Shown here: positions 16,365-63,170 of the stretch, in pieces | Layout of the letters: every line of letters starts with the position of its first letter | Numbering within the stretch: position 1 is the first letter of the stretch | Source of the DNA: Felis catus | Lineage: Eukaryota | Direction: 5' to 3' | Assembly: GCF_018350175.1 (NCBI RefSeq) | Contig: NC_058381.1 | Span: forward strand, 54,994,001 to 55,058,000 | Length of the DNA: 64,000 bases | Program-made: the position numbers and the translations under genes | Notes under the pieces: model-generated | Told to the model about the DNA's origin: nothing | What the model saw: only the letters and a program-made list of their open reading frames with translations | The model's database searches: none

Positions 16365-25017
<8,653 letters not shown>

Positions 25018-34893: not shown

Positions 34894-35223
34894 CTGGTTC
34901 GACAATCGCTGAAAATTTGTACCCTATATCAATGCCGGTCCGCTCAATCCCACACCAGTAGGTGTCTTCATCGTCCCACTGGAGGTTCTCCAAGGTCATG
35001 GTGAATGTGTGTCGGCTGTGATTGTCCTGGATCGACACTCTGCCCCTCTTCACCAGTTGTTCTGACCCGGTGGTTTTAACAAGGATTTTGCAGGAATCCC
35101 AGTCATTCCCACGACACAACCATTTTTTGTGAGATTCCCATCCTGGGCAATACACACAGGATGTGGTCAGTGTGCCCCCATATGTGCCTCTCTCCGCTTC
35201 CTCCTGGCAGGTGCAGAAGTGGC
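34894..35223 (-). pseudogene. CD300LD-like copy A IgV exon (open frame, intact splice sites)
   Basis: 330 nt, phase 1-1, GHFCTCQ...KKWLCRGNDWDSCKILVKT...DTYWCGIERTGIDIG. The leader is frameshifted and no stalk or TM exon follows. Confidence 0.85.
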
Positions 35224-36389
35224 CTAGAAAACAGAAAACCAACATGCACCTTGTCCTTCGTTGGCCCAGAGCTGACCTGGGCACTGCTGGAGCTTCTGGT
35301 CCTGCCCTGAAGACCAGCCAGGAGCCTCTGCTCTCTGTCTAATTGCCACATCCTGCTTGTCCCTTCATCCCCTGCAGGATTTGTTTTGCTGTCAACCCCC
35401 TTTGTGAATCCCCCCTGAGGCTCCTAACTGCCCAATACAGGGGCCTCTGCTCACTTGCTATCTTACTGACCACGGACCCCTCCTCGCCCTCAAGCAGCAC
35501 CTCTTCCTGGCAGCTCAGAGCACACACTGCAGCCACAGGTGTATTTCTGAATCCCAGAGCTGGTGAGACAGTGTGGCCCCCTCCCCATCCATGCCCCCAA
35601 CACTCTAACCCCCACACACCTATAAACCCTCAGCCCCCGAATCGACACATGACATGGAACTAAACACACACACTCACACACATGACAAACGCTCACTCCG
35701 TCCCACAGGTGATTGATTGATTTTTTTACCTACACACCTCGCTATTTTGTTTCTTCATACCTTTGTACAAGCTCTTCCCTCTGCCTACAATGTGCCTTCT
35801 TCTCTGCTTGAAGAAATCAACCCTTATCTTCTCCTTCAAGCCTTGGCTCAAATGGAGTCTCTTCTATGGTTTCTCTAGTTCTGCAGCCAACTCAGTCCCT
35901 CCCGGTGCCACCAGAGCACTTTGTCCCTGTCTTGGTAGTTGAGCTGATAACCTTGGATGTGGCCTGGTCTTTGGATCATCCAGAGCAGAGACCCAGGCAG
36001 GCTGATGTGTGGGGACGAGCAACTCTCCAGAGAGCCTTTCACCCTGGTTTTGCTGCCTGCCTTCCTCCCTGTTGTCTGAGCTCTTCAGAAGAGTGCTTCC
36101 TGGCTTGAGCGACAAATGAAGACCAGTTGTGCTTTTAAATGATGCAGATGCCTGAACCCCACCTTGACTGAGTGGCTCTCTGCTGGAGGTTGGGCACCTG
36201 TGCTTCTTCAGAGTTCCTCAGAATTTCATGCATTTATGTGTGTGTGCATATATATATGTGCATGTATGCATCTATCTATCATCCGTCTATGGATGAGTGA
36301 AAGTCTCTGCCGTTTCCCCAGGACAGACCCTGTCTGTGTCCTGCCCTGGCCCTGCAGGGGTTTGGTCCTGAAGCCCCCATGCCACTCAC

Positions 36390-36422
36390 CGTGGATGACG
36401 AGAAGGAGCAGAGCTGGCACAT
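36390..36422 (-). pseudogene. CD300LD-like copy A leader exon with 7-bp deletion
   Basis: ATGTG|CCAGCTCTG lacks gctgctc relative to the paralogs at 40870 and 60758. The exon is 33 nt (phase 0), so it is out of frame with the IgV exon; the donor gtgagt is intact. Confidence 0.85.
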
Positions 36423-38942
36423 GTCCTGCCTGCCTGGCTTGTCTCCCTGGTGCTCAGCAAATGTCAGCTGCCCTCTGGGGACTTGCACTGAACTCAGAGG
36501 CAAAGTGCCTCTATTTTAAATTTTTTCCTTTTTTAGTTTCTCTCATCTACTTCCCTTAAAATTTTCCTTCCATTACTTCCTAATTTCATTAATTAGAAGA
36601 AAATCAGTGCCTTCTTTGGGAGCATATGGCTGACGTCATCATGTGTCTTCCGTGATTTGCGGAAGCAAAGCATCCCACTGTCCAGGGTGCTACTGCAATT
36701 GTGCGTGAGGACCTGGGGAGCCAGCTGCCAGCCAACCAGGTGACCCAGTGCAGCAGGGAAGGGACACCAGAACCTCAGAGTTGGGTCCAAGGAGGAGATG
36801 GGCACACGTTGGGCTTGCACGTGGGGAAGAATCAGTGCTCAGGGCTCACACCCAGCCTCGCTGGCCATACAGCCCCTTCCTGAACCTCCTTCCGGGCAGC
36901 CCACCTCAGTGCACCCCAGACCACCCTCTCCCTCCCTCGGTCTTGGTCCAGCCCAGATCCTGACCTGTTGCCCCTCCCTCTCAGAGTCCCCTGGAGGTCC
37001 TGAGTCCCTCTGAGGCAAAGGTGCCATGGGAAGATTATAAGGAAGGAGAAGTCGCCCATTCCCATCAGCCTCATTGTGCCCTAGATGCTTCCTTGGTCAC
37101 CCTTGGCAGATTTCCCCTGACTGTGGGCTGTTGGTCACTTTCCAGCCCCAAACTTCTTACTAATGATTCCTACATGACTTTCACACAAGTGTCTCCTCTT
37201 CCTTCAGGTGTCCCCTCCTCTGACTGTCCCCTGCTCCCTTTCCCTCTCCTCTCTGAATCAGTTCTTTTGTCTCCTGTTTTTCTTTTACGTTTTCCAACTT
37301 TGTGAGTTTGGTTCTACCTTTTGGGAGGCCTTTTTTTTTTAATGTAATTTTGTGCTTTTATTCTCTCTTGTAATCTTTGATGAAATACTCAGTTTAAGAA
37401 TTATACTTTTATTTCAAAAGCTCCTTTTTTTTTGTTCTCTGCTTGGTGATGTTTTCAAAAACTCTCCTCACTCTGTGGTCATGCTTTGGTTTGGTCTGGT
37501 CTGCTCTGGTCCTTCTCCTTCATATTACACACCTGCCTCAATGTCTGATCATTGTTTGTTATCTGACTGTAATTGATAATGAGCCAAAACATAGCTGGTT
37601 GGGGTTCTGAGTATGTGGGGACAAAACTCCATGTAAAACAGGTGTGTCGTATGGTGCCAATTTCTTTCAACCGTCTATCCCTTCTTGATATACAGGCTAT
37701 GTCTTCACATGAGCGGGTAGAGGCATCTTCTAAATTCCAGAGTAAAGAGTTTTGAAGGTGACTTCCAGCATCCTCTCTAACGGCCTTGGTTTCCCCAAAT
37801 ATTTCATGAAGTTAAAGAGCCTTCTGGAGGATGGGACTGTTTGTGTCTGGATCGCAGTGCTGGTTGCATGGGTGTGTTTTCTTTGTGCAAATGTGTTGAT
37901 CTTTGCACTTCTGATGTGTGCACTTTCCGTGTGTATTTTATACTCCAATAAAAAAGTTTTATGTTTTATCATGGAAATCTTTCCAAGCCATCACACCTCT
38001 GCTTACTTATTCTTGAAATAGTTGTCTTAATGTTCCATTGTGTGGCTGTAGCACTGTGCACTACTCCTGTATTATCAGCCTTTGACCCTGTTTCCAGCAT
38101 TTTACTCTTGAAAATCTATGCAGTAACCTTCCAGCTCAGGTAAAATGAAGTCAACAACACTCCATAGACCTCGTGCCCTGACTACAGCTAAGAACCCAGG
38201 CAGAATATGTGCAGCGACTGAGTATTCTGCAAAATGAGCCCTAGTTTAAGAGATTGAGGAAGGAAACCAGACCAAGTATAAGACCAATCCAGCTGTGAGT
38301 TTTTCTGATTATTTTCTGATTATATTTCCTTTTATATCCTCCTACCTGAGCGGGAACCCTGCAGCCCACATCCTGAAAGTGCACTCTCAGCAGGACCTTA
38401 AGAGCTCCAGAGGAACAGAAAAACGAAGCACTAATGGAAGGGGGCGGGAGGAATCCCATGTTTTCTTGGTGTTCGTGTTTTCTTTCCCTCCTACCAAGTC
38501 CCCAGCAAGCAAACCTCAGGACGGAAGCTGCAAGTCCACCTGCAGCCGCTGGGGGCAGACAGCTGGAACTCTGAAGGGGGAAGGTCTTTGCTGCCCAGAA
38601 GAGCTTGGGCCCCAAGAGGGGGGAGAGAGAGAGGAATACCAGTGCATCTTCTCTCTTTGTTCTTCTACTGCTTGGCCCTGGATGCAAACCCAATCACAGG
38701 AAGTACACAGCAGACTGGGGAGAGTAAAGCTTCAGCTCTCCAAGCTTCCTAGCCAAAGGACGAGTAAAGGAGGAGGTGGCGGTTCTGAAAGCTGGGAGGG
38801 AATGGGGGAGGATGGAGAAGAGAAAGCAGTTGAAGAAAGGGACGCTTGATCTCCCGGGATCGCGCCCCAGTGGGCTCCTGATCAGACCCTGGGGAGAATA
38901 CTGGAGTTTGAGACTTGGTGAAGGCCATCGCCAGTCACAGAC

Positions 38943-40869: not shown

Positions 40870-40909
40870 ATGTGGCTGCTCCCGGTTCTGTTCCTTCTTG
40901 TCATCCAGG
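40870..40909 (+). CDS. CD300LD: CD300LD-like exon 1 (signal peptide)
   Basis: gacATG; 40 nt; donor CAGG|gtgagt. Confidence 0.88.
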
Positions 40910-43900
40910 GTGAGTGAGGCGGGGCTCTAGGATCGAGCACCTGCAGGGTGGAGGAGGGCAACACAGACAGGGTCTGCATGGGAGGAAGTGGCAGAGCCTT
41001 TCATTCATCCAGACACTTATTCATTAAAAATTTTTTTTAATGTTTTGTTACCTGACAGGTACTAAGTTAGGTGTTGGGGAAGGAAATAAAAATAAATAGC
41101 ACAAATGGTGTCCGTTTTCTAGGGCACAGTTTGTCAACTTGTGGTAGATAGATCCTAAGACAGATGATGGATGGGTGGACGGATGGATGGATGGATGGAT
41201 GGACAGATGGATAGATGATAGATAGTTGCATACACGCACACATATATGCACACACACATAAATGCATGAATTCCTGAGGAACTCTGAAGAAGCCAGATGC
41301 TCGGGCTCCAGCAGAAAGCCACTCAGTTAAGGTGGAGATCAGGCATCTGGATCATTTAAGCCTGTACATTTGGTCTTGAACTATAGCTTGAGCCAGGATC
41401 CTTTTTTCCGAAGACCTCAGACAACAGAGAGGAAGGCAAGCAGCAAAACCAGGGTGACAGGCTCTCTGGAGAGTTGCTCATCCCCACACACCAGCCTGCC
41501 TGGGTCTCTGCTCTGGATGATCTAAAGACAGATCATCATCTAGTGTCCTTAGCATGATACCTGAGACAGGGACTAAGTGGTCTGGTGGCGCCAGCAGCGA
41601 CCAAGTTGGCTACAGAAAGGGAGAAACTGTTTGAGCTGAGCCTTGAAGGATGAATATAAGAGTTTGATTCCTTCAAGCAAAGAAGAAAGCACATTCCTGG
41701 TAGAGGGAAGAGCTTGTACAAAGGTACGAAGACACAGAAGAANNNNNNNNNNNNNNNNNNNNNNNNNNNNNNNNNNNNNNNNNNNNNNNNNNNNNNNNNN
41801 NNNNNNNNNNNNNNNNNNNNNNNNNNNNNNNNNNNNNNNNNNNNNNNNNNNNNNNNNNNNNNNNNNNNNNNNNNNNNNNNNNNNNNNNNNNNNNNNNNNN
41901 NNTCCATGTGATTCAGAGGCTGAGGGTTTGTTGGGGAGCACAGGTAGAGTATCAGGGACATAGATGGGGAGGGGGTCACGCTGTCTCACCAGCTCTGGGA
42001 TTCAGAAATACACCTGTGGCTGCAGTGTGCGCTCTGTGCTGCTGGGAGAGGTGCTGCTTGAGGTCGGGCAGGGGACGGTGGTCAGTAGGATGGTGAGTGT
42101 GCAGACAGCCCTGTATTGGTTAGGAGAGTTAGGAGCCTCAAGGGGGATTCACAAGAGGGGTGACAGAAAAGAAATCCTGCAGGGGATGAAGGGACAGACG
42201 GGATGTGCCAATTAGACAGAGGGCAGAGGCTCCTGGCTGGTCTTCAGGGCAGGGCCAGAAGCCCAAGCGGCACCCGGGTCAGCCCTGGGCTCAAGGAAAG
42301 ATAAGATGCATGTTGGGTTTCTGTTTTCTAGGCCACTTCTGCACCTGTGAGGGAAAAAAGGTGAGAGGCACATTGGGGGGCACACTGACTGTGCGCTGTG
42401 CATACGGTCCGGGATGGGAATCCTACAAGAAGTGGTTGTGTCGCGGGACTGACTGGGATTCCTGCAAAATCCTTGTGAAAACCACTGGGTCAGAGCAACT
42501 GGTGAAGAAGGGCCAAGTGTCCATCCAGGACAATCACAGCCGACGCACATTCACCATGACCTTGGAGGATCTCCAGCAGGACGACGCAGACACTTACTGG
42601 TGTGGGATCGAGCAATTTGGCACTGACGTGGGGATCGAATTTTCCGTGATTGTCAGTCCAGGTAAGAACCACTCATCCTGTGCTCTGGGGTCATGGGACC
42701 CACCCCCAGAGGAGTCAGGACTGTTTCTCTGCCTTCCCCCATAGAGGGAGAGGAGTCTCGAAACTTGCCTGAGACTACACGTGTGCATGTGTTTGTGTGG
42801 GTGGGGGACACCAAGATTCTGGGAAAGACTGGAAGAAAGTGCGAGCCTCCACAACTCCGCATGTCTCCATCTGGTCTCCCCAGAGGGAGCAGAGAAGGGC
42901 AGACTCAGCCAGGACAGGCTTTTCCAGGGAAGGCAGCTCCTCTTTTCCCGGTCACGTTCACGTCAGCACATCCCAGCCTGCATGGGGTGATGTCAGGCAT
43001 ACAGGGAGGGGTGGGATGCTAGAAAGCCATGATCCTGATGGTCTCAGCTACAGAACAAGTGACCTTCTCCATGCCCCCTCCCTGCTCCCCTCTCTCCTCT
43101 GGCACAAGGGAGCAGGTGAGGAACCGTGAGCCCATATTTAGGAGAATGAAAAGCAGGTTCCACTATGGTGCAGAAACCTTCTCTTCTGCCTCTATCCTTG
43201 GAGAGACCCTGGGCTCCCCTGCAGCTGCCCCAGAAGCACTAGGCCCTCCCTGGAGACAAGCCTGGAAGGAGAGTCAGGCTGTAGCCCCCGCCCCACAGCT
43301 CTGCCTCTGGACCCCTAAGTCTTGTCTCCAACACACAGACACACAGACACTAGGGAGGTTTACATTTGCTACTGATTGCTCCATTTCTAAAGCAGAGAAA
43401 AGTCTCTTCAAACTTAGAATATGCAAATATGGTGTGCAAATATGTGCAGTGGGGACGGATGCTGGTCTTAGAATGTTTTAGAAATTAACTGAAAAGAAAT
43501 TAACACCACAAAGGTGGTGGATGTGTGCAAGGGTGGAGGAGGAGTTGGTGCCAGAGAATTGGAGTCTGGACCCTTGACCCAGATGACTTTCCCCGGGCAG
43601 GCCTGGAGAAGTAAGAAAGCAAGCCCTGGGGAGGCAGGAAGGACCGCAGTGGGAAGCAGGGGCTGCGGGCACTCGGCAGTCCCAGGAGACAGGGGACCCT
43701 GGGCCTGCCAGCTCTTGGGTCACATCGCTTCAGGGCAGCTGGCACAGAGCCTGCTTCAGGCCAGGCTGAGACTCAGAAAGGAGCCTGCCTGGCTGATTTA
43801 AGGCTCCAGGGATTGGGAACATGGTTCTGACATGCTCAGCTATGCCCAGCAGGACACTGAGATGAAACTGAATGGGAATTGCCCACATAACCAGCAACCC

Positions 43901-46818
43901 CAATATCTCACATGGCGGCAAACTGGTGATTCTCTGCAAATCAGTAATCGTTTGTTTGGAATAATGCCAAAAAGATGCAAGAGAAAACCAACATGGCTGA
44001 GCAGTGGCACTAAGACAGAAAGGTTCTGCACCCCTGGGGGTGGGGTGTGGAGACCATGGGAGCCACCTGTGACACTCACAACCATGCTCTGCTCTGTGTG
44101 TTTAGCCCCTGATCCAACAGACTCTCCCAAGCCTGTAGCGAGAACAACGCTGCCCAGTTGGACTTCCTCTCGTCCATTTCCCCAGGGCATCAACAGCAGC
44201 CAGCCCATGGATTTGAATAGCCCGCTAACCAGGTGAGCAGAGCTGGACCCACAGACCTTTCCCACTGTTGCCTTGGGACAGCTCTCCTCGGGACACTCTC
44301 ACAGTGACCCCCATTGGCCTCTCTGATGTTTCCTCTGCTGGGGAGAAACAGCAAGGTCTACGCTGGGCCCCCTCTTTGTACCTCTGAGTCCTTAAAGAGC
44401 TCCCCCTCCCCACAAGAAACCTAGGCAAAGTTGTTCAGCTGGGCTGCAGGAGAGAAGCTTCTGGTCTCCTTCTGACCTGCCTCCCAACCCCCAAGCAGCC
44501 AAAACAGGCACAGGTGTTTTCAGCCTCAAGTTGCCAGAAGGGAAGGGCTCTGGATTCGCTCCCTGTGGCTGCTGGAGCAAATCACCACCACCCTGGTGGC
44601 TGAAGGCAAAACGATGTTATGATCTTAAAGTTCTGGAGACAAGGTCTGGGATGAGTCTCACTGGGCTAAACTCAAGGTGCTGGCAGGGCTGGCTCCTCCT
44701 GGAGGCTCTGAGGGAGAAGGGCTTCCTTGTCTTTTCCAGCTTCTGGAGGATGCTGCACCCCTGGCTCGTGGTCCCTCCATGTGCACAGCCAGCAGGGGTG
44801 GTCAAGTGTTTCTCACCCTCATTACTCTGACACTGGCTCTCCTGTGTGCTTTCATTTATAAAGACACTGGCGATTCTATAGGATCCACCCAGATATCCCA
44901 GGATCACCTCCCCATCTCAAGGTCAGCTGCTGGCAAACTTAAATCCATCTGTATCATTAATTCCCCCATGCCATGTAACATAACACATTCACAGGTCTGG
45001 GGATTAGGACCTCTTTGGTGGGGGGCATTATTCTGCCCACAGACAGTCAAGCAGGTACCTGTTCCATGGATCCAGCCCTCCCCTCCCCAAGTGCTAGGGA
45101 AATGCTGGGAAGGAATGGGAAGCTGACATTTCTGTTTTCTCACGTTCCCAACATGGTCAGTCGACAGGCTGGGCCATCAATCTGAAACCCACCCCCTCCA
45201 CAGGCATCCAAAGAACAATCAATTAACTCTTTCTTCAAAGGGCAAACACCCTGTCCCAGTTTCACCCCATCCGAGTTCAGGGTGAAGGTGCGTTTCCTCC
45301 CAGAAGCCCCCTTCACCGCCTCCCTTCTGGTACAGTCTCTCTTCCTTCCCTTCTCAAGGATCCTACTCCTTGGAGCTGCCCTGCTGGACGGTGTGTTCGG
45401 TCATGTGTGCAGCCAGGCACTTGGTTCATGCTTCACGATCGGCCTCTGTCCTGCTCATGACTATTTAAAGACCAGTTTTTCTGTGGAGTCTGGAGAGGAG
45501 GATGTGAAACTTTTAGGGGACTGAGGGGCACAGGAGGAAGCCTGCAGGTGGAGAGATGGGGTGGCAGCTCCACAGGAAGTGGGGCGTGGGAAAAGAATGC
45601 AGTGGGTTCAAGGATAATTTAGGAAGTACAAAGCATCGTGTCTTCTCTCTCAAGAGAACCCCCTGTGAAATGAACATGACAAATCTTGCTCAAGGCAGGT
45701 AGAAGGAGAGAAAAAGTCCAGACTACAGGGAGGTCCTGGCACTGCTTGTAGGGGAGGGGATGAGGCAGAGGTTGAGGGGGTCAGATTCTGGATACTGATG
45801 GGGACTCCTAGGGGGACATATATGAGCAAGGGCCCAATGGTCCACTAGACCACATGTCTACTGTCCAGGGTGTATGCGATAGTGCACCTGCTATGTGCTA
45901 CCAGATGGGGTTCAGAGCCAGGAGAGACCCCTCCCAGGGGAAGCTAGAACATAAATTGCCAGATTACCAGGAAGAGGTATCTTCCTCTGCTTCAAAGAGG
46001 TGATATGAGGTCTGAGCTGGAAGTACAGGCAGAATTTATACAAGGTGGGACAGACGTAGATTCAAATAGGCAAAGGCAAATCTTTGGTCCTGGCTGGCCT
46101 GCTGCTGAGGCGGAGGGGATTTGGGGGAGGCGGCCGACAAGCAGGATGAAATCAGGGTGCAGAGGTGCTGGAGCCCAGGCTAAGGCTGCTGGGAGGCCCC
46201 TGAATGCTTCGCCTTGGGCAGCATGGCCGTGCCCTCAGAGGGGCTTTTGGGCAGGGACCGGGGCTGGCCTGTCCTCCAGGTCTGGGGGCAGGAGTGAGGG
46301 TGGACAGGAAGGGCCTGGAGCGGCCCCTGAAGAGGGACTCCACTCCTGTCAGCACGATCCCTGCTCAGGGCCCTGCTACACAACCTTCACTTTGTGCTTT
46401 TGACCTTTGTGAAGTTGCCCCTGCTTGGGTCCTGCTGTGACTGTGATGTGGGGAGTCCGGGGGACTCCAGGGGAAGATACGTCAGTCTGAGCAGGAGAAA
46501 CACAGCCCCCTCCCCCACCATGGACACCCCCGCACCCTCTGAGCTCTGGTCAGGGAAAGGGCAATGATTACATTTCCGAGACAGATGGGGGCCCCTGTTA
46601 GGTGAGGACTCCCCGCTTCCTGCTGTCAGGAATTAAAGTCTGGCTCCCTCTCTGCTCTGCACAGGTCGGGGACCATTGCCTCCACTGTGGAAGCAGAGAA
46701 AAGAAAGGGTGTATTCTCATTCCACCATCGGTCCTCAGCCGCACCTGTAATCTCTCCTGTGTGGATCCTCCTGGTACCTCCTTTCCTTGCCACCCTCGAG
46801 TTGCTCTGCCAAGGATAA
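40870..46818 (+). CDS. CD300LD: CD300LD-like gene, inverted relative to neighbours; exons 40870-40909, 42332-42661, 44106-44232, candidate 46665-46818 (216 aa)
   Basis: Leader MWLLPVLFLLVIQG; IgV with CAYGPGWESY..W.C.G.DW..C.ILVKT.GSEQ as in CD300LD/LB/LF; the stalk ends NSPLTR, like the recalled human CD300LD SSPLTR. Phases 1/1/2 are all consistent. The last exon is inferred. Confidence 0.7.
42332..42661 (+). CDS. CD300LD: CD300LD-like exon 2 (IgV domain)
   Basis: Acceptor ctgttttctag|GC and donor CCAG|gtaaga; 330 nt; all four CD300 IgV cysteines and DADTYWC present. Confidence 0.95.
44106..44232 (+). CDS. CD300LD: CD300LD-like exon 3 (S/T/P-rich stalk)
   Basis: Acceptor ctctgtgtgtttag|CC and donor ACCAG|gtgagc; 127 nt, phase 1 to 2. 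Encodes APDPTDSPKPVARTTLPSWTSSRPFPQGINSSQPMDLNSPLT(R). Confidence 0.85.
44570..45045 (-). mobile_element. MLT1 (MaLR) LTR
   Basis: gtctcactgggctaaactcaaggtg...ggaggctct...aacataacacattcacagg...gggggcattattctgccc signature. Confidence 0.85.
45336..45468 (+). pseudogene. Possible decayed ancestral TM exon of the CD300LD-like gene
   Basis: The acceptor ttcaccgcctcccttctggtacag resembles other CD300 TM-exon acceptors. In phase 2 it reads ...LELP, then after a 1-nt shift LLDGVFGHV (compare recalled CD300LD LELPLLLSMLGTV). Similarity is weak. Confidence 0.4.
46665..46818 (+). CDS. Candidate terminal exon encoding a GPI-signal-like C-terminus
   Basis: Strong acceptor ctccctctctgctctgcacag|G. In phase 2 it reads (R)SGTIASTVEAEKRKGVFSFHHRSSAAPVISPVWILLVPPFLATLELLCQG* with TAA at 46816-46818. 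Confidence 0.5.
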
Positions 46819-48559
46819 ATGACCCTTTCATCATTCAGGACTCTGGCCAACGATGGGTTTCCAATTCCAGTAAGCATAAAACCTGGGTTAAACCAAAAAG
46901 TTCCAGAGTGTGTCCACAGGGACAAAGACCCCCTGATGGGCCAGCTGCACAGAGTTCTGCCAATTCCACCTTCTGCTGCATCAGCGCCTCCAAGAAAGAA
47001 TTCCTTGAATGCAAAAGATGGAAAACAGGGTTGGACCATCGCCCAACCCACATCTGACCTGTTTGCCCTTTACATTTCCTATGAAATCTGTGGCTTTCTT
47101 TGCTCTTTTGAGATTATTTGGGGGGACACCATTTCAATGTTTATATGTGAGAGGACGACCCTTCCATTCTAGAGGGAGGGAAATGACTCTAAATCCAACG
47201 CTAGAATCCGAATGTGTCCGGGAAACGGGCAGTTGTGTGTGTAAATTTGTCCATAGTGGTTGAAGTTACTCTTTCCCCCTTTGTAAATAGTAAGTGTTTT
47301 GCAGCAGGGCTTTGTAACCATGTAAATATCCGCCTGTCCCTGCATCTACATCGGTGGCCTCTAAGCACAGGGGACTCATGCAGTCATCACCAGAACAGTT
47401 CATTTCTGTCCCTCCAATTGTCTCTTGGCCTCACTGGTCCTTAGGTGCAGGGGTTCCAGGGACCGTTTGGACTCTTCCATCGAGATGGAACGGATCTGTC
47501 CCCTCCTCACCCATGACACTGTCCATCCCCCAGACAGCTCAGACCCACCATCACCCACTCCTGGATTTAGCCGGACCTTTGGCCTTTATGTCCCGCCCCC
47601 ATGAACACTCTCACCCCCACGGCCAGCTGAGCAACACAGCCCAGGATGCCCAACCCTTCCTTTTTAACTTCCTCTACTCAGTCATCAAAAACTAATAACA
47701 CAAGCCTTTTTCTTTTTTAATTTTCAAAGTTATATATGTTTCCTCTCAATAATGATTTGGGTTTTGGATTTGTTTTTTGTTTTTTTTTTTCTCTTCCACT
47801 TACATTCTTCCTGGGCTCTGTCTGCTCTTTTTTTGTGTCCTTATTTTATTTATTTTATTTTGTTTTATTTTATTTTATTTTTAATCCCACAAATGCAAGG
47901 TCGGTTTTTTATTAACTTTTTATTTTTTTAATATGAAATTTATTGTCAAATTGGTTTCCATACAATACCTAGTGCTCAGATATTTTATTTTGAACGATTT
48001 TGGGGACCTCTATCTCTTTTCTGAGCTCCTTCTTTAGAGAGGTCATGTTGTCCATAATTTCTCCGAGACTGAGCTGAACTGGCCAGCTGGACTCTTCCTC
48101 TGTGTCCTGGGGCCCTGGCGCTCACAAAGCAAGTTCTCCAGCTGCATTTTGCTGGCACTGTGCTCCTCTCCTTGAGTCCATCAGTTAGGAAAGGTGCTGG
48201 TTCATTTTCGAGTAGAAGCTTCCTTTGAATGTGGTCGGGGCACTGCAGAGAGGTTGTGGGTGGGCAGCGGGGCGTTCTGCAGAGGCGGGTGGCTTCTTGT
48301 GGGGAACACCTCCCACCAGTGCTGACAGCTCCAGCCCACATGGTTCTGGTTCGCGCCTCTGAAAAGGGCAAGACCTCCAGGCCCAGCAGCCCGTGCACGT
48401 TACCGCATGAGGAGTCCGGCCCCAGGTTTCCGCCGCAGGGCTGAGTCTCCCAGGGGCCTCCCCCCAGCCCTCTGTGCATCCGGCAGAAGCAGCATGTTCC
48501 TTGAACCATCCTGCCTGGGGCTGGGACATTAAGTTCTCTCTGCTTAGATCTTCCGTGGG

Positions 48560-49521: not shown

Positions 49522-50039
49522 AATTGCTTTTGGAAGACTCTTAACATAGTGCCTTCACATCACATTAAAGAATGAGGAGCCCAGAAGGGCCCTGAGCCCC
49601 CAGTCATAATGCCAGGGAGCAGACTTGGACCTGCCCCAAGGAGGTCCACACCATGATCCTGCGAGTCCATCTGTGCACTGGAAAGGTCAGGTCCCAAGCC
49701 TGGGTCAGGTCCCAAGCACTGGGGCACCATGTGGCCCCAGTGTAAGCACTAGGCAGACACAACAATGCTCTGCACTTTCTCTGCTTTACTCACTGGTCAC
49801 AGACCGCATCCGAGACTTGCATGAACTTACAAATAGGTTTTGCTTGGATCACAATATTTATTTAAGTGGAGGTTGTTGCCTACATGTAAACATGAGCCAT
49901 TTCACTTCTGACTTCTCTTTTAAAAGCAGAAATGCCAGAAAACAGTGGGTCCACGATGCTACATGCTCCACAGGGTCATCAGAGTGTTTAAGGCCTTCCA
50001 GGGGCTCCTAAGGTTCCGGGACACCACTGAAGCACACAG

Positions 50040-58928: not shown

Positions 58929-59258
58929 CTGTGTCAACAATCACAGAAAATTCCAACCCCAGGTCAGTGCCAAATCGCTCAATTCCACACTAGTAGATGT
59001 CTGAATCGTCCCACTGGAGATTCTCCAAGGTCATGGTGAATGTGCTTTGGCTGTGATTATCCTGGACGGACGCTCAGCCCTTCTTCACCAGTTGCTCTGA
59101 CTCAGTGGGTTTAACAAGGATTTTGCAGGAACTCCAGTCATTCCCACGACACCACCACTTCCTGTAGGATTCCCATCCCCGATCATATGTATAGTGTGCA
59201 GTCAGTGTGCCCCCCAGTGTGCCTCTCACCATTCTCTCCAGGCAGGTGGAGAAGTGGC
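58929..59258 (-). pseudogene. CD300LD-like copy B IgV exon, inactivated
   Basis: 330 nt; B-strand Cys changed to Tyr; TGA at 59074-59076; TAG at 58990-58992 (YWC to Y*C); donor GT changed to AT. Confidence 0.92.
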
Positions 59259-60718
59259 CTAGAAAACAGAAACCCAACATGCAGCTCGTCCTTCCTTGAG
59301 CCCAGAGTTGACCCCCATGCTGCTGGCGCTTCTGGCCCTTGCCTGAAGACCAGCCAGGAGCCCCTGCCCTCTGTCTAATCTCCACATCCTGCCTGTTCCT
59401 TCAACCCCCGCAGAATCTTTTGTTGTCACCTCTCTCATGAAGTTCTCCTTGGGTCTCCTAACTGCCCAATACAGGGGCCCTCTGCTCACTCCATCCTACT
59501 GACCACCGTCCCCTGCCTGCCCTCAAGCAGAACCTCTTCCCAGCAGCACAGAGCGCATGCAGCAGCCACAGGTGTGTTTCTGAATCCCAGAGCTGGTGAG
59601 ACATCATGGTTCCCTCCCCATCCCAGCTCCTGACATTCTAACCCCCACACACCTAAAAACCCTCAGCCTCTGNNNNNNNNNNNNNNNNNNNNNNNNNNNN
59701 NNNNNNNNNNNNNNNNNNNNNNNNNNNNNNNNNNNNNNNNNNNNNNNNNNNNNNNNNNNNNNNNNNNNNNNNNNNNNNNNNNNNNNNNNNNNNNNNNNNN
59801 NNNNNNNNNNNNNNNNNNNNNNNNNNNNNNNNNNNNTCTTCTGTGTCTTCATACCTTTGTACAAGCTCTTCCCTCTACCAGAATGTGCTTTCTTCTCTCC
59901 TTGGTGGAATCAAACCCTGATATCCGTCCCTCAAGGCTCGGCTCCAACATTGTGTTTTCTGGGGGATTCTCTGGTTCTACAGCCAACTCGGTCACCCCCG
60001 AGCCACCAGAGCACTTTGTCCCTGACTCAGTTACTGAGCTTCCAACACTGGATGAAGGTCCGGTCTGTGGCTTATCCAGAGCAGAGACTCAGGCAGCCTG
60101 ATGGGGGCGGGGCGGGGGAGAGGGGGCGGTGAGCAACTCGGCAGAGAGCCTGTCACACCCTGGTTTTGCTGTCTGCCTTCCTCCCTGTTGTCTGAGCTCT
60201 TGAGAAGAGAGGATCCTGGCTCAAGCTTCAAATCAAGACCATTTGTGCAGGCTTAAAAATGATGCTGATATCTGAACCCCAGCTGAACTGAGTGGGTCTC
60301 AGCTGGGGGTTAAGCTCCTTAAAAATCCCTCAGGAATTCATGCATTTATGTATGTGTGTATATATGTGTGCATGTGTGCATTTATCCATCAACTCTCTAT
60401 TCCTCCATCCAACCATCCATCCATCCATCTGTCCGTCCACCCACTTGTCCATCTACCATCTATTTACCCATCTATCTGCTAGGGGTGACAAACAATGCCT
60501 GAAAACAGACACTGCTTGTGCAATTTATTTTTGTTTTCTTTCCCCGACACCTAACTTAGTACCTGCTAGGTAACATAACTTAAAAAAAATTCTTTTTTGA
60601 CTGAAACAGTGTCCTGATGAATGAAAGACCCTGGCATTTCCCTCGGGACGGACCTAGTCTGAGTCTCACCCAGGTCCTACAGGGTAGTCTGTCCAGAAGC
60701 CCCTGCCCATGCACTCAT

Positions 60719-60758
60719 TTTGGAGGGCGGGGAGGAACAGAACCGGGAGCAGCCACAT
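60719..60758 (-). pseudogene. CD300LD-like copy B leader exon with dead donor
   Basis: MWLLPVLFLPALQ followed by atgagt instead of gtgagt. Confidence 0.88.
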
Positions 60759-63170
60759 GTCCTGCCCGCCTGGCTTGTCTCCTGATGCTCATCTGATTGC
60801 AGCTGCCCCCTGGGGACTTGAGCTGAGCTTGGAGTCAAACTACCTTCTATTGTCTAAATCATTCTTTTTTAGTTTCTCTCATCTGCTTCCGTTAACTTAT
60901 TTTTTCTTCACTGACTTCCTAATTTTATTAATTAGAAGAAAATCAGTGCCTTCTTTGGGAGCATGTGGCTGACGTCATCATGTGTCTTCCGTGATTTGCG
61001 GAAGCAAAGCATCCCACTGTCCAGGGTGCTATTGCAATTGTGCGTGAGGACCTGGGGAGCCAGCTGCCAGCAAACCAGGTGACCCAGTGCAGCAGGGAAG
61101 GGACACCAGAACCTCAGGGCCGGGTCCAAGGGAGGGATGGGCACACGTTGGGTTTGCACGTGGGGAAGAATCAGTGCTCAGGGCTCACACCCAGCCTCGC
61201 TGGCCATACAGCCCCATCCTGAACCTCCTTCCAGGCAGCCCACCTCAGTGCACCCCAGACCACCCTCCCCCTCCCTTGGTCCTGGTCCAGCCCAGATCCT
61301 GACCTGCTGCCACTCTCTCTCAGGGTCCCCCTGAGGTCCTGAGTCCTTCTGAGGCAGAGGTACTATGGGGAGATTATACTTTCCTTTTAGCCCTATTGTG
61401 TCCTAGACATTTCCTCCATCACTCTTGGGTGTATTTCCCCTGGGTGTGGGCTGTGGGCCACATCCCAGCCCCAAGCTGCTTATGCTAATGATTCCTACAT
61501 GATGTTCCCACAGGTGTCCCCTCCTCTGACTGTCCCCTGCTCCCTTTCCCTCTCCTCTCTGAATCAATTCTTTTGTCTCCTGTTTTTCTTTTATGTTTTC
61601 CGTGTTTGTGAGTTTGATTCTACTTCTTGGGAGTGTTTGGTTTGCTTTTGTGTATTTACTTTATCTTCCAATCTTTGCATGAAATATTTAGTTTAGAAAT
61701 TTTATTCCCTGCTTGTGGATGTGTTCAAAACTCTCATTTGTGGTCATGTTTTGGTTTGGTCTGGTCTAGTTTGGTCCTTCCCTTTCATATTACACACCTG
61801 CCTCAAATGTCTGATCATTGTTTGTTATCTGATTGTAAGTGAGATTGAGCCAAAACGTAGCTGATTGGGGTTCTTAGTATGTGGGTGCAAAACAGCATGT
61901 GAAACAGGTGTGTGGTATTGTGCCAAGGTCTTTGAGCCTTCCAACCCTTCTTGATATACAGGCTACGCTTTCACATGAGAGGCTGAGGGATCTTCTAAAT
62001 CCAGAATGAAGATCTCTAGCTGCCTTAGTTTCCCCAAATATTGTATGCAGTTAAAGAGGATCCTGGGGGATGGGACTGTTTGTTTCTGGATTGGGGTACT
62101 GGTTGCATGGGTGTGTTTTATTTGTGCAAGTGTATTGATCTTTGCACTTCTGTTGTGTGCACTCTCTCTGTGGATTTTATACTCCAATAAAAAGCTTTTA
62201 AATTTTGCTGCGGAAATCTTTCCAAGCCATTACATCTGTACTTATGTAATCCTTAAATAGTTGCTTTAATGTTCCATTGTGATTGTAACATAATTACCTA
62301 GTCACGTAGGGATGGTGGCTGAGCCCATTTCCAGCTTTTTGCTCTTGAACATCTATGCTGCAGGCTTCCAGCTCAGGGAAGATGACGTCAACACACTCCA
62401 CAGACCTCTCCCTAGACTACAATAAAAGCCCAGACAGAATGTGTAGAGCCACTATCTGAGTATTCTGCAGAATGAACCGTAACAGGAATTGGGGAAGGAA
62501 ACCAGACCAAGTATAGGACCAATCCAGCAGTGAGTTTTCTGATTATATTTCCCACTATATCCTCCTGCCTGAGCGGGAAACTTGCAGCCCACATCCTGAA
62601 AGTGCATGCTCAGCAGGGACCCTAAGAGCCCAGGATGAGCAGAAAAAGGAAACCCTAAGGGAAGAGGGGGTCAAATTGCCAGAGTTTTCTTGGTGTTCGT
62701 GTTTTCTTTCCCTCCCACGACGTCCCCAGCAAGCAAGCCTCAGGACAGAAGCTGCAATCCCACCTGCAGCCGCTGGGGGCCGAAAGCTGGAACTCTGAAG
62801 GGGGAAGGTCTTTGCTGCCCAGAAGAGCTTGGGCCCCAAGAGGGGGGAGAGAGAGAGGAATACCAGTGCATCTTCTCTCTTTGTTCTTCTACTGCTTGGC
62901 CCTGGATGCAAACCCAATCACAGGAAGTACACAGCAGACTGGAGAGAGAAAAACCTCAGCTCTCCAAGTTTCCTAGCCAAAGGACGAGGAAAGGAGAAGG
63001 TGGCGGTTCTGAAAGCTGGGAGGGAATGGTGGGGGGGATGGAGAAGAGAAAACAGCTGAAGAAAGGGACGTTTGATCTCCCAGGATCGCGCCCCAGTGTG
63101 GGCTCCTGATCAGACCCTGGGGAGAATACTGGAGTTTGAGACTTGGTGAAGGCCATCGCCAGTCACAGAC

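Follow-up and report, generated by a model that had tools for sequence, protein, structure and literature searches.

A 64,000-nucleotide stretch of the domestic cat genome (Felis catus, NC_058381.1, positions 54,994,001 to 55,058,000 of the forward strand; hereafter the window) carries at 40870-46818 of its plus strand a CD300 gene, here called copy A, whose last exon encodes a tail resembling the signal for attachment of a glycosylphosphatidylinositol (GPI) anchor. Sequence comparison suggests that copy A and three tandem cat paralogs belong to a carnivoran CD300 subfamily that is likely GPI-anchored, with a tail probably recruited from a former 3' untranslated region (UTR); we give this reading a probability of about 0.65. 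The gene model itself is already annotated in RefSeq, and the new part is the anchor reading. The evidence from a single locus is weak, and it is conservation over paralogs and species that appears to lift the observation above chance.

Gene model of copy A

The leader, IgV and stalk exons of copy A join as a single open frame, which bears out an earlier, sequence-only reading of this DNA that had described the three exons as intact and the stalk as ending in phase 2 at 44232. The acceptor that it had placed at 46664 (AG at 46663-46664, with pyrimidines at 14 of the 17 positions from -20 to -4) opens a 51-residue continuation that ends with TAA at 46818. The spliced product of 216 amino acids (aa) is letter-for-letter equal to RefSeq XP_019672557.2 ('CMRF35-like molecule 5', Felis catus), and the run of small residues that had been noticed 25-28 aa from the end is found as S189-S190-A191-A192, 28-25 residues before the C-terminus. 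The features of the gene are as follows.

40870..40909, plus strand: coding part of the leader exon (signal peptide), with a phase-1 GT donor; the same leader type occurs in three downstream paralogs
42332..42661, plus strand: IgV exon of the CD300LF/LB/LD type, keeping the equivalents of W89, G96 and D98 in the metal/lipid-headgroup pocket of mouse CD300lf
44106..44232, plus strand: stalk exon rich in Ser, Thr and Pro, with a phase-2 donor; its profile scores at least 30 bits in 112 carnivoran proteins
46665..46818, plus strand: last coding exon, with a GPI-signal-like tail and a TAA end
46701..46751, plus strand: 51-nucleotide (nt) in-frame segment, present in copy A, its felid orthologs and bears and missing in the three other cat paralogs
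46735..46743, plus strand: predicted omega, omega+1 and omega+2 codons, S190-A191-A192, with S189 as alternative omega, by the rule in PMC7125958
46756..46818, plus strand: hydrophobic C-terminal 20 residues and stop, with 93.7-96.8% DNA identity among the four cat paralogs
47081..47086, plus strand: ATGAAA, read as the decayed poly(A) signal of copy A; three paralogs have ATTAAA at the counterpart, 271-273 nt past the stop

The hydrophobic CD300-type leader exon is predicted to supply the N-terminal signal peptide that belongs to a GPI-anchored protein, and N-X-S sites lie at residues 81 and 153. The best match of the IgV domain among solved structures is human CD300LF (2NMS, E 6.7e-38), PF07686 is present on all close relatives, and the gene lies within a CD300 cluster, with other CD300 IgV and transmembrane exons on either side within 264 kb. 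The IgV exon begins (42332-42350) with extra cysteines, two in copy A, one in most relatives and none in dog, which may lie in the signal peptide or permit disulfide-linked dimers. AATAAA was not found within 3 kb of the stop, in agreement with the sequence-only reading, and the nearest ATTAAA is at 49564. Sequencing runs listed as holding the whole or part of the stretch number 20 of 24, six being recorded as RNA, and have no bearing on splicing or expression.

Four tandem paralogs in the cat

Beyond the window the locus continues as a tandem array of four plus-strand genes of identical layout (coordinates continued from the window):

A, 40870-46818, plus strand
B, 72228-78361, plus strand
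C, 100040-105789, plus strand
D, 131051-135715, plus strand

In all four the leader, IgV and stalk exons are open, the stalk ends at the same phase-2 donor and a GCACAG acceptor is conserved, from which an open last exon runs in the same frame through the same 20-residue hydrophobic tail to the same stop. The spliced model of B equals RefSeq XP_019672558.1; the RefSeq model of C stops at the stalk end. IgV identity among the four is only 80.7-85.9%, and positive selection on this domain was not seen (pN/pS 0.46-0.61). In comparisons between copies the 63 nt of the tail show 93.7-96.8% identity and the 3' flank 77.1-90.7%; the upstream intron is 77.8-80.7% identical in five of the six pairs and 97.3% identical between A and D. 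Each pair of tails differs by 0-2 synonymous and 1-2 replacement changes, too few for dN/dS, and the last exon is without similarity to other cat CD300 genes.

Patchwork gene conversion is visible in this array: the intron at about 45250-45560 is 99% identical between A and B (44233-45949 against L006), A and D agree at 97% in the intron before the last exon, and B, C and D share one stalk sequence (100% identity) whereas their IgVs diverge by 14-19%.

A tail shared across Carnivora

Relatives were taken from at least 15 of 19, 15 of 19 and 15 of 27 members of three clusters and from the best 120 of 174 matches. Among the matches listed, 112 carnivoran proteins bear the stalk of the subfamily, and 92 of them finish with the same tail; these come from seven families: cats, hyenas, meerkat, canids, bears with the panda, mustelids and true seals. 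The sequence-only reading had thought of a felid protein, which proves too narrow, and had proposed a check of the frame of the last exon in felids and other carnivores, which gives the same 92 of 112. In the copy A cluster (19 members) 14 of the 15 listed members have the long tail, and alternative stalk isoforms end alike. Three proteins found only in Logan, on contigs of 901, 1004 and 1257 nt, extend from IgV through stalk to tail; since these contigs are shorter than the 2432-nt cat intron, they would most simply represent spliced RNA, of a mustelid-like copy and not of the cat.

The IgVs of the subfamily form one clade, carnivoran in our sample, with support of 99/95 and 100/100 in two trees (110 columns, deeper forks weak). 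Copy A had earlier been likened to CD300LD; its IgV falls in a separate clade whose sister group is weakly placed, in trees that contain no named CD300LD. A profile search found the tail in none of 136 new library representatives, from a library that collapses relatives above 50% identity and in a sample without a pangolin ortholog. A search with the dog stalk and tail gave two proteins among 29 candidates, both canid, and is too insensitive to bound the range, and the ESM Atlas gave no usable match for residues 150-216.

GPI-signal-like properties of the tail

The consensus GPI signal has a small residue at omega, a small residue at omega+2 and then 20-30 residues with hydrophilic and hydrophobic parts (PMC7125958). 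Copy A agrees with the omega part of this rule at S190-A191-A192, with a signal of 26 residues past omega. Of 46 distinct tails, both long and short, 43 satisfy the rule at position -27; small indels displace the site in two of the exceptions, the third has Met, and omega+2 is Ala in 45 of the 46. The long form (copy A, bears) and the short form draw the omega triplet from different DNA, in the same register. At the displaced old omega site all 14 felid long forms have Glu at omega+2, a change that counts as one event. Across positions -19 to -7, no K, R, D, E, H, N or Q occurs in any of 34 distinct tails, and 50-65% of simulated neutral lineages (0.10-0.15 changes per site) acquire a charged or amide residue or a stop there; the entire GPI rule survives in 6-18% of such lineages, indels included. 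Identity between feliforms and caniforms (104 pairs) is 68% for the tail, 70% for the IgV, 59% for the stalk and 53% for the omega region. These conservation counts lean towards the anchor reading, since annotation favours open frames.

Tails from cat Ly6/uPAR last exons, presumed to be GPI-anchored as members of that family, served as controls; 14 of 20 extracted tails were used, after exclusion of three short ends of secreted type, a long atypical end and two reads that were non-terminal or spurious. On an insertion scale, the best 19-residue sum is 2.6-7.1 in 45 carnivoran tails, 0.3-11.0 in the 14 controls and -4.3 to 0.6 in 31 of 32 canonical CD300 helices. The mean hydropathy of the last 20 residues is 1.45, against 0.79-1.79 in the controls. 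A GPI rule tuned on the controls accepts 13 of the 14, together with 43 of 45 tails and 1 of 103 other proteins. The architecture of a GPI signal, as first read from copy A, is thus supported by conservation and by the physico-chemical profile; it stays a prediction, and the spacer of copy A is hydrophobic.

Remains of the transmembrane exon and other splice sites

According to the sequence-only reading, no intact canonical CD300 transmembrane exon lies downstream on the plus strand. That statement holds, but it overlooked a lysine-bearing remnant:

46369..46567, plus strand: remnant of a lysine-bearing transmembrane exon, with a frame shift past its KLPLLG motif and a weak acceptor

Over 89 nt the remnant shows 69.7% DNA identity with an intact transmembrane exon on the minus strand, 16657-16569 (E 1.3e-5). 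It differs from the WVNRP type and matches an exon type seen in donkey, bats and mole. A product spliced through 46369 would have 231 aa and a poorly hydrophobic segment (best 19-residue sum 6.1). The old exon is broken in all four cat copies, in differing ways: A and D have frameshifts, D with loss of the acceptor as well, B has a SINE-like insertion and a stop, and C has lost the 5' part. The type I helix and cytoplasmic tail of a CD300 are therefore missing from copy A, because the old exon is frameshifted and the annotated end is without a cytoplasmic tail. One seal model and one ferret model retain an open old exon, in which polar substitutions (sums 6.6 and 4.7) fit relaxed constraint.

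A further site had been named earlier as an alternative destination of the 44232 donor:

45359..45523, plus strand: acceptor-like intronic site, outside the gene model

As a degenerate transmembrane or last exon this site was rejected, its AG being lost in one paralog and its frame shifted in another, and none of the 112 annotated relatives uses it. A donor-like AG/GTGAGG at 46602 is kept in all four paralogs, about 60 nt before the last acceptor, and an isoform of Mustela lutreola (polecat-type) translates the stretch 46602-46664 in frame before the same tail. As the start of a real intron the GT at 46602 was rejected, the 63 nt to the acceptor being too short to trust. Downstream acceptors stand at 46871 and 47451; their counterparts are used in leopard, clouded-leopard and one MetaClust paralog-D model and would yield secreted isoforms.

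Origin of the tail

An intact lysine-bearing transmembrane exon of the type of the remnant is present in donkey, vampire bat, pipistrelle, free-tailed bat and star-nosed mole models. The tail occurs in none of these donkey, bat (three) and mole models, most of which stop soon past the helix. The vampire-bat protein XP_045046249.2 reads on, and it aligns to window positions 46349-46771 in frame +2 without an intron-sized gap (38.5% over 148 aa, E 1.2e-14 in 264 kb), a span that takes in the remnant, the present-day acceptor and the 51-nt segment; the frame of the cat tail is +1. With the last exon alone, none of 2,000 shuffles reaches the vampire-bat score in that frame, and the coding frame gives a chance score. 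Because the vampire-bat model runs colinearly through the remnant into it, the last-exon DNA corresponds in this bat model to part of the old terminal exon downstream of the helix. In the ancestor this DNA was likely 3' untranslated, a new acceptor probably making it coding in Carnivora. The long form is likely ancestral too, since the vampire-bat model covers the 51-nt segment in another frame.

Two other origins were tried. An insertion of the 51-nt segment private to copy A is ruled out by the bear, walrus and bat models. For a transposon origin of the last exon, a genome search gave only the four paralogs, a weak result from a search that skips common words.

Taken together, we lean slightly towards a history in which an activating, lysine-transmembrane CD300 of the ancestor of Carnivora gained an acceptor in its own 3' UTR and with it a de novo GPI signal, the transmembrane exon being lost and the gene multiplying to four copies in the cat. 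The switch to the tail would likely have happened once, before the feliform/caniform split.

Counter-evidence and alternative products

Several observations weigh against GPI anchoring or against the proposed origin. Of the 112 relatives, 20 end otherwise: ten break off where the stalk ends, among them the RefSeq model of C, a single one is partial, a harbour-seal model runs through the old transmembrane exon, the walrus model leaves the tail frame and seven have other ends. The protein set derives from annotation, so open frames are over-represented and models may have been projected between species. Our GPI rule is home-made, with thresholds tuned on the Ly6/uPAR controls, and it also passes 5 of 136 unrelated library proteins and, over 264 kb, 31 of 942 polypyrimidine-AG sites; three of these 31 are the real exons, which leaves 28 of 939 others (about 3%). 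The spacer after omega in copy A is hydrophobic (Kyte-Doolittle mean 1.1) against the hydrophilic spacer of the consensus; most short forms have -1.2 to 0.4, and candidate sites in Ly6/uPAR proteins -2.0 to 2.8. The ATTAAA of the paralogs is not kept in copy A. Gene conversion can explain part of the identity within the cat, as is suggested by tail synonymous sites that are as conserved as replacement sites and by stalks that are identical in B, C and D. In the IgV tree the bat, donkey and mole genes are neither favoured nor rejected as sister group, and the proposed 3' UTR origin depends mainly on a single bat gene model, aligned at the protein level.

The alternative that survives best, unlikely as we consider it, is that the tail is used yet left unprocessed by the GPI transamidase, too weakly hydrophobic to be recognized, so that a soluble CD300 is secreted or is held and degraded in the endoplasmic reticulum (ER). 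Sums of 2.6-7.1 are unfavourable for a helix, the tail holds two prolines and has Glu, Lys or Gln at -6, and several annotated isoforms that end at the stalk or at downstream acceptors would be secreted. However, secretion needs neither a conserved, uncharged core of fixed length nor a small triplet at -27, and Ly6/uPAR tails are equally low in hydrophobicity, as is the GPI signal of CD59 (PMC9520029).

It is also improbable, in our judgement, that copy A, whatever the anchoring of the subfamily, mostly yields another product (secreted forms with a retained intron or downstream splicing, or the 231-aa form) or is weakly expressed. Such an exception would suit its decayed poly(A) signal, its atypical spacer and the surviving AG at 46369, as well as the leopard and clouded-leopard paralog-D models that use a downstream acceptor with a counterpart near 46871; yet the long tail is carried by 14 of the 15 listed members of its cluster (of 19), and the acceptor at 46665 has pyrimidines at 14 of 17 positions against 11, 10 and 10 of 17 at 46369, 46871 and 47451. 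Least probable of all is that the tail is a replacement transmembrane helix without a cytoplasmic part, perhaps stabilized by a partner through the polar residue at -6: about 17 mostly apolar C-terminal residues, and the charged helix residue that activating CD300s use (PMC12447643), would agree with it, but the hydrophobicity lies far below that of 31 of 32 canonical CD300 helices, the charge at -6 is not kept (Glu in 25, Lys in 5 and Gln in 4 of 34 tails) and basic stop-transfer residues are missing in most tails.

Neighbouring CD300 genes and fragments

Two inverted leader-plus-IgV copies of the subfamily, without stalk or tail exons, lie on the minus strand at 34895-36640 and 58936-60980. 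The IgV at 59256 has two stops, both leaders look damaged, and the copies sit in a segmental duplication of about 24 kb, which holds more IgV fragments (32952 and 56953). On the minus strand at continued coordinates 84669 (L007) and 115527 (L010), two CD300LF-like IgV exons are almost identical to each other and have a leader of the subfamily type upstream; no transmembrane exon was found within 6-8 kb downstream, and they could be chimeric, secreted or dead genes. An intact activating CD300 occupies 16500-25017 of the minus strand (leader at 25017, IgV at 19641, transmembrane exon of the lysine-bearing WVNRP type at 16657). Further on, continued coordinates 142100-147711 hold another such gene and 235700-238500 an inhibitory gene of the CD300LF type.

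Proposed working of the protein and comparison with known systems

If the tail works as a GPI signal, the stalk donor at 44232 would splice past the old transmembrane exon to 46665, as annotated in RefSeq, and the leader would direct the precursor into the ER, to be cleaved, probably after S190, and to receive the anchor. The product would display an IgV domain and a glycosylated stalk on the outer leaflet, with neither an adaptor-binding lysine nor a cytoplasmic tail. In mouse CD300lf, W89, G96 and D98 hold a metal and phosphocholine (PMC6166816); the equivalents of all three are kept in copy A (alignment to 6C74), and those of G96 and D98 in 91 of 92 tail-bearing proteins. Because these metal- and lipid-headgroup-binding residues are kept, the IgV likely binds outer-leaflet lipids, and the protein may serve as a non-signalling co-receptor, tether or sheddable decoy. 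The pathogen-decoy role raised in the sequence-only reading would be speculative.

Such a protein, if real, would add to the activating and inhibitory CD300s a third class, acting as a tether or sheddable decoy without signalling. Its bearers would be cats, dogs, ferrets, bears and seals, species that are widely used as infection and veterinary models. The current names (CMRF35-like molecule 1, 5 and 7) obscure the subfamily. It would also offer a datable birth of a sorting signal from untranslated DNA. A GPI-linked CD300 is described in no title or abstract that we found; subscription papers, supplements and feature annotations in databases may hold such a prediction.

The published description makes CD300s type I transmembrane proteins that carry a cytoplasmic tail, and GPI was not found mentioned in it (PMC12447643). 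Copy A shares with the activating members (CD300LB, LD, E, H and C; CLM/LMIR in the mouse) the leader, the single IgV with the CD300 cysteine pattern, the Ser/Thr/Pro stalk, the position in the CD300 cluster and the lysine-bearing transmembrane exon, which here is a remnant; it differs from them in that this exon is broken and the annotated, GPI-signal-like end comes from a different exon. In CEACAM5, 6, 7 and 8, likewise Ig-superfamily members, a change from transmembrane to GPI attachment took place in one mammalian lineage and was then multiplied (PMC2110893). There the GPI signal is a transmembrane exon cut by a stop codon, whereas in the carnivoran CD300s, for which GPI attachment is predicted, the old exon would be skipped and the signal would come from downstream DNA in another frame, a route unlike the stop-codon route of the CEACAMs.

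Two further groups of proteins invite comparison. Secreted CD300 splice forms such as CD300Hs have lost the transmembrane segment by alternative splicing and are not known to have a conserved hydrophobic C-terminus; in the subfamily described here, by contrast, the length of the tail, the omega triplet and the uncharged core are kept across seven families. Fc-gamma-RIIIB (CD16b) and TRAIL-R3, both of primates, are GPI-linked, non-signalling paralogs of signalling receptors, with a signal derived from the transmembrane-coding region. Copy A would resemble them as a paralog predicted to be GPI-linked and non-signalling.

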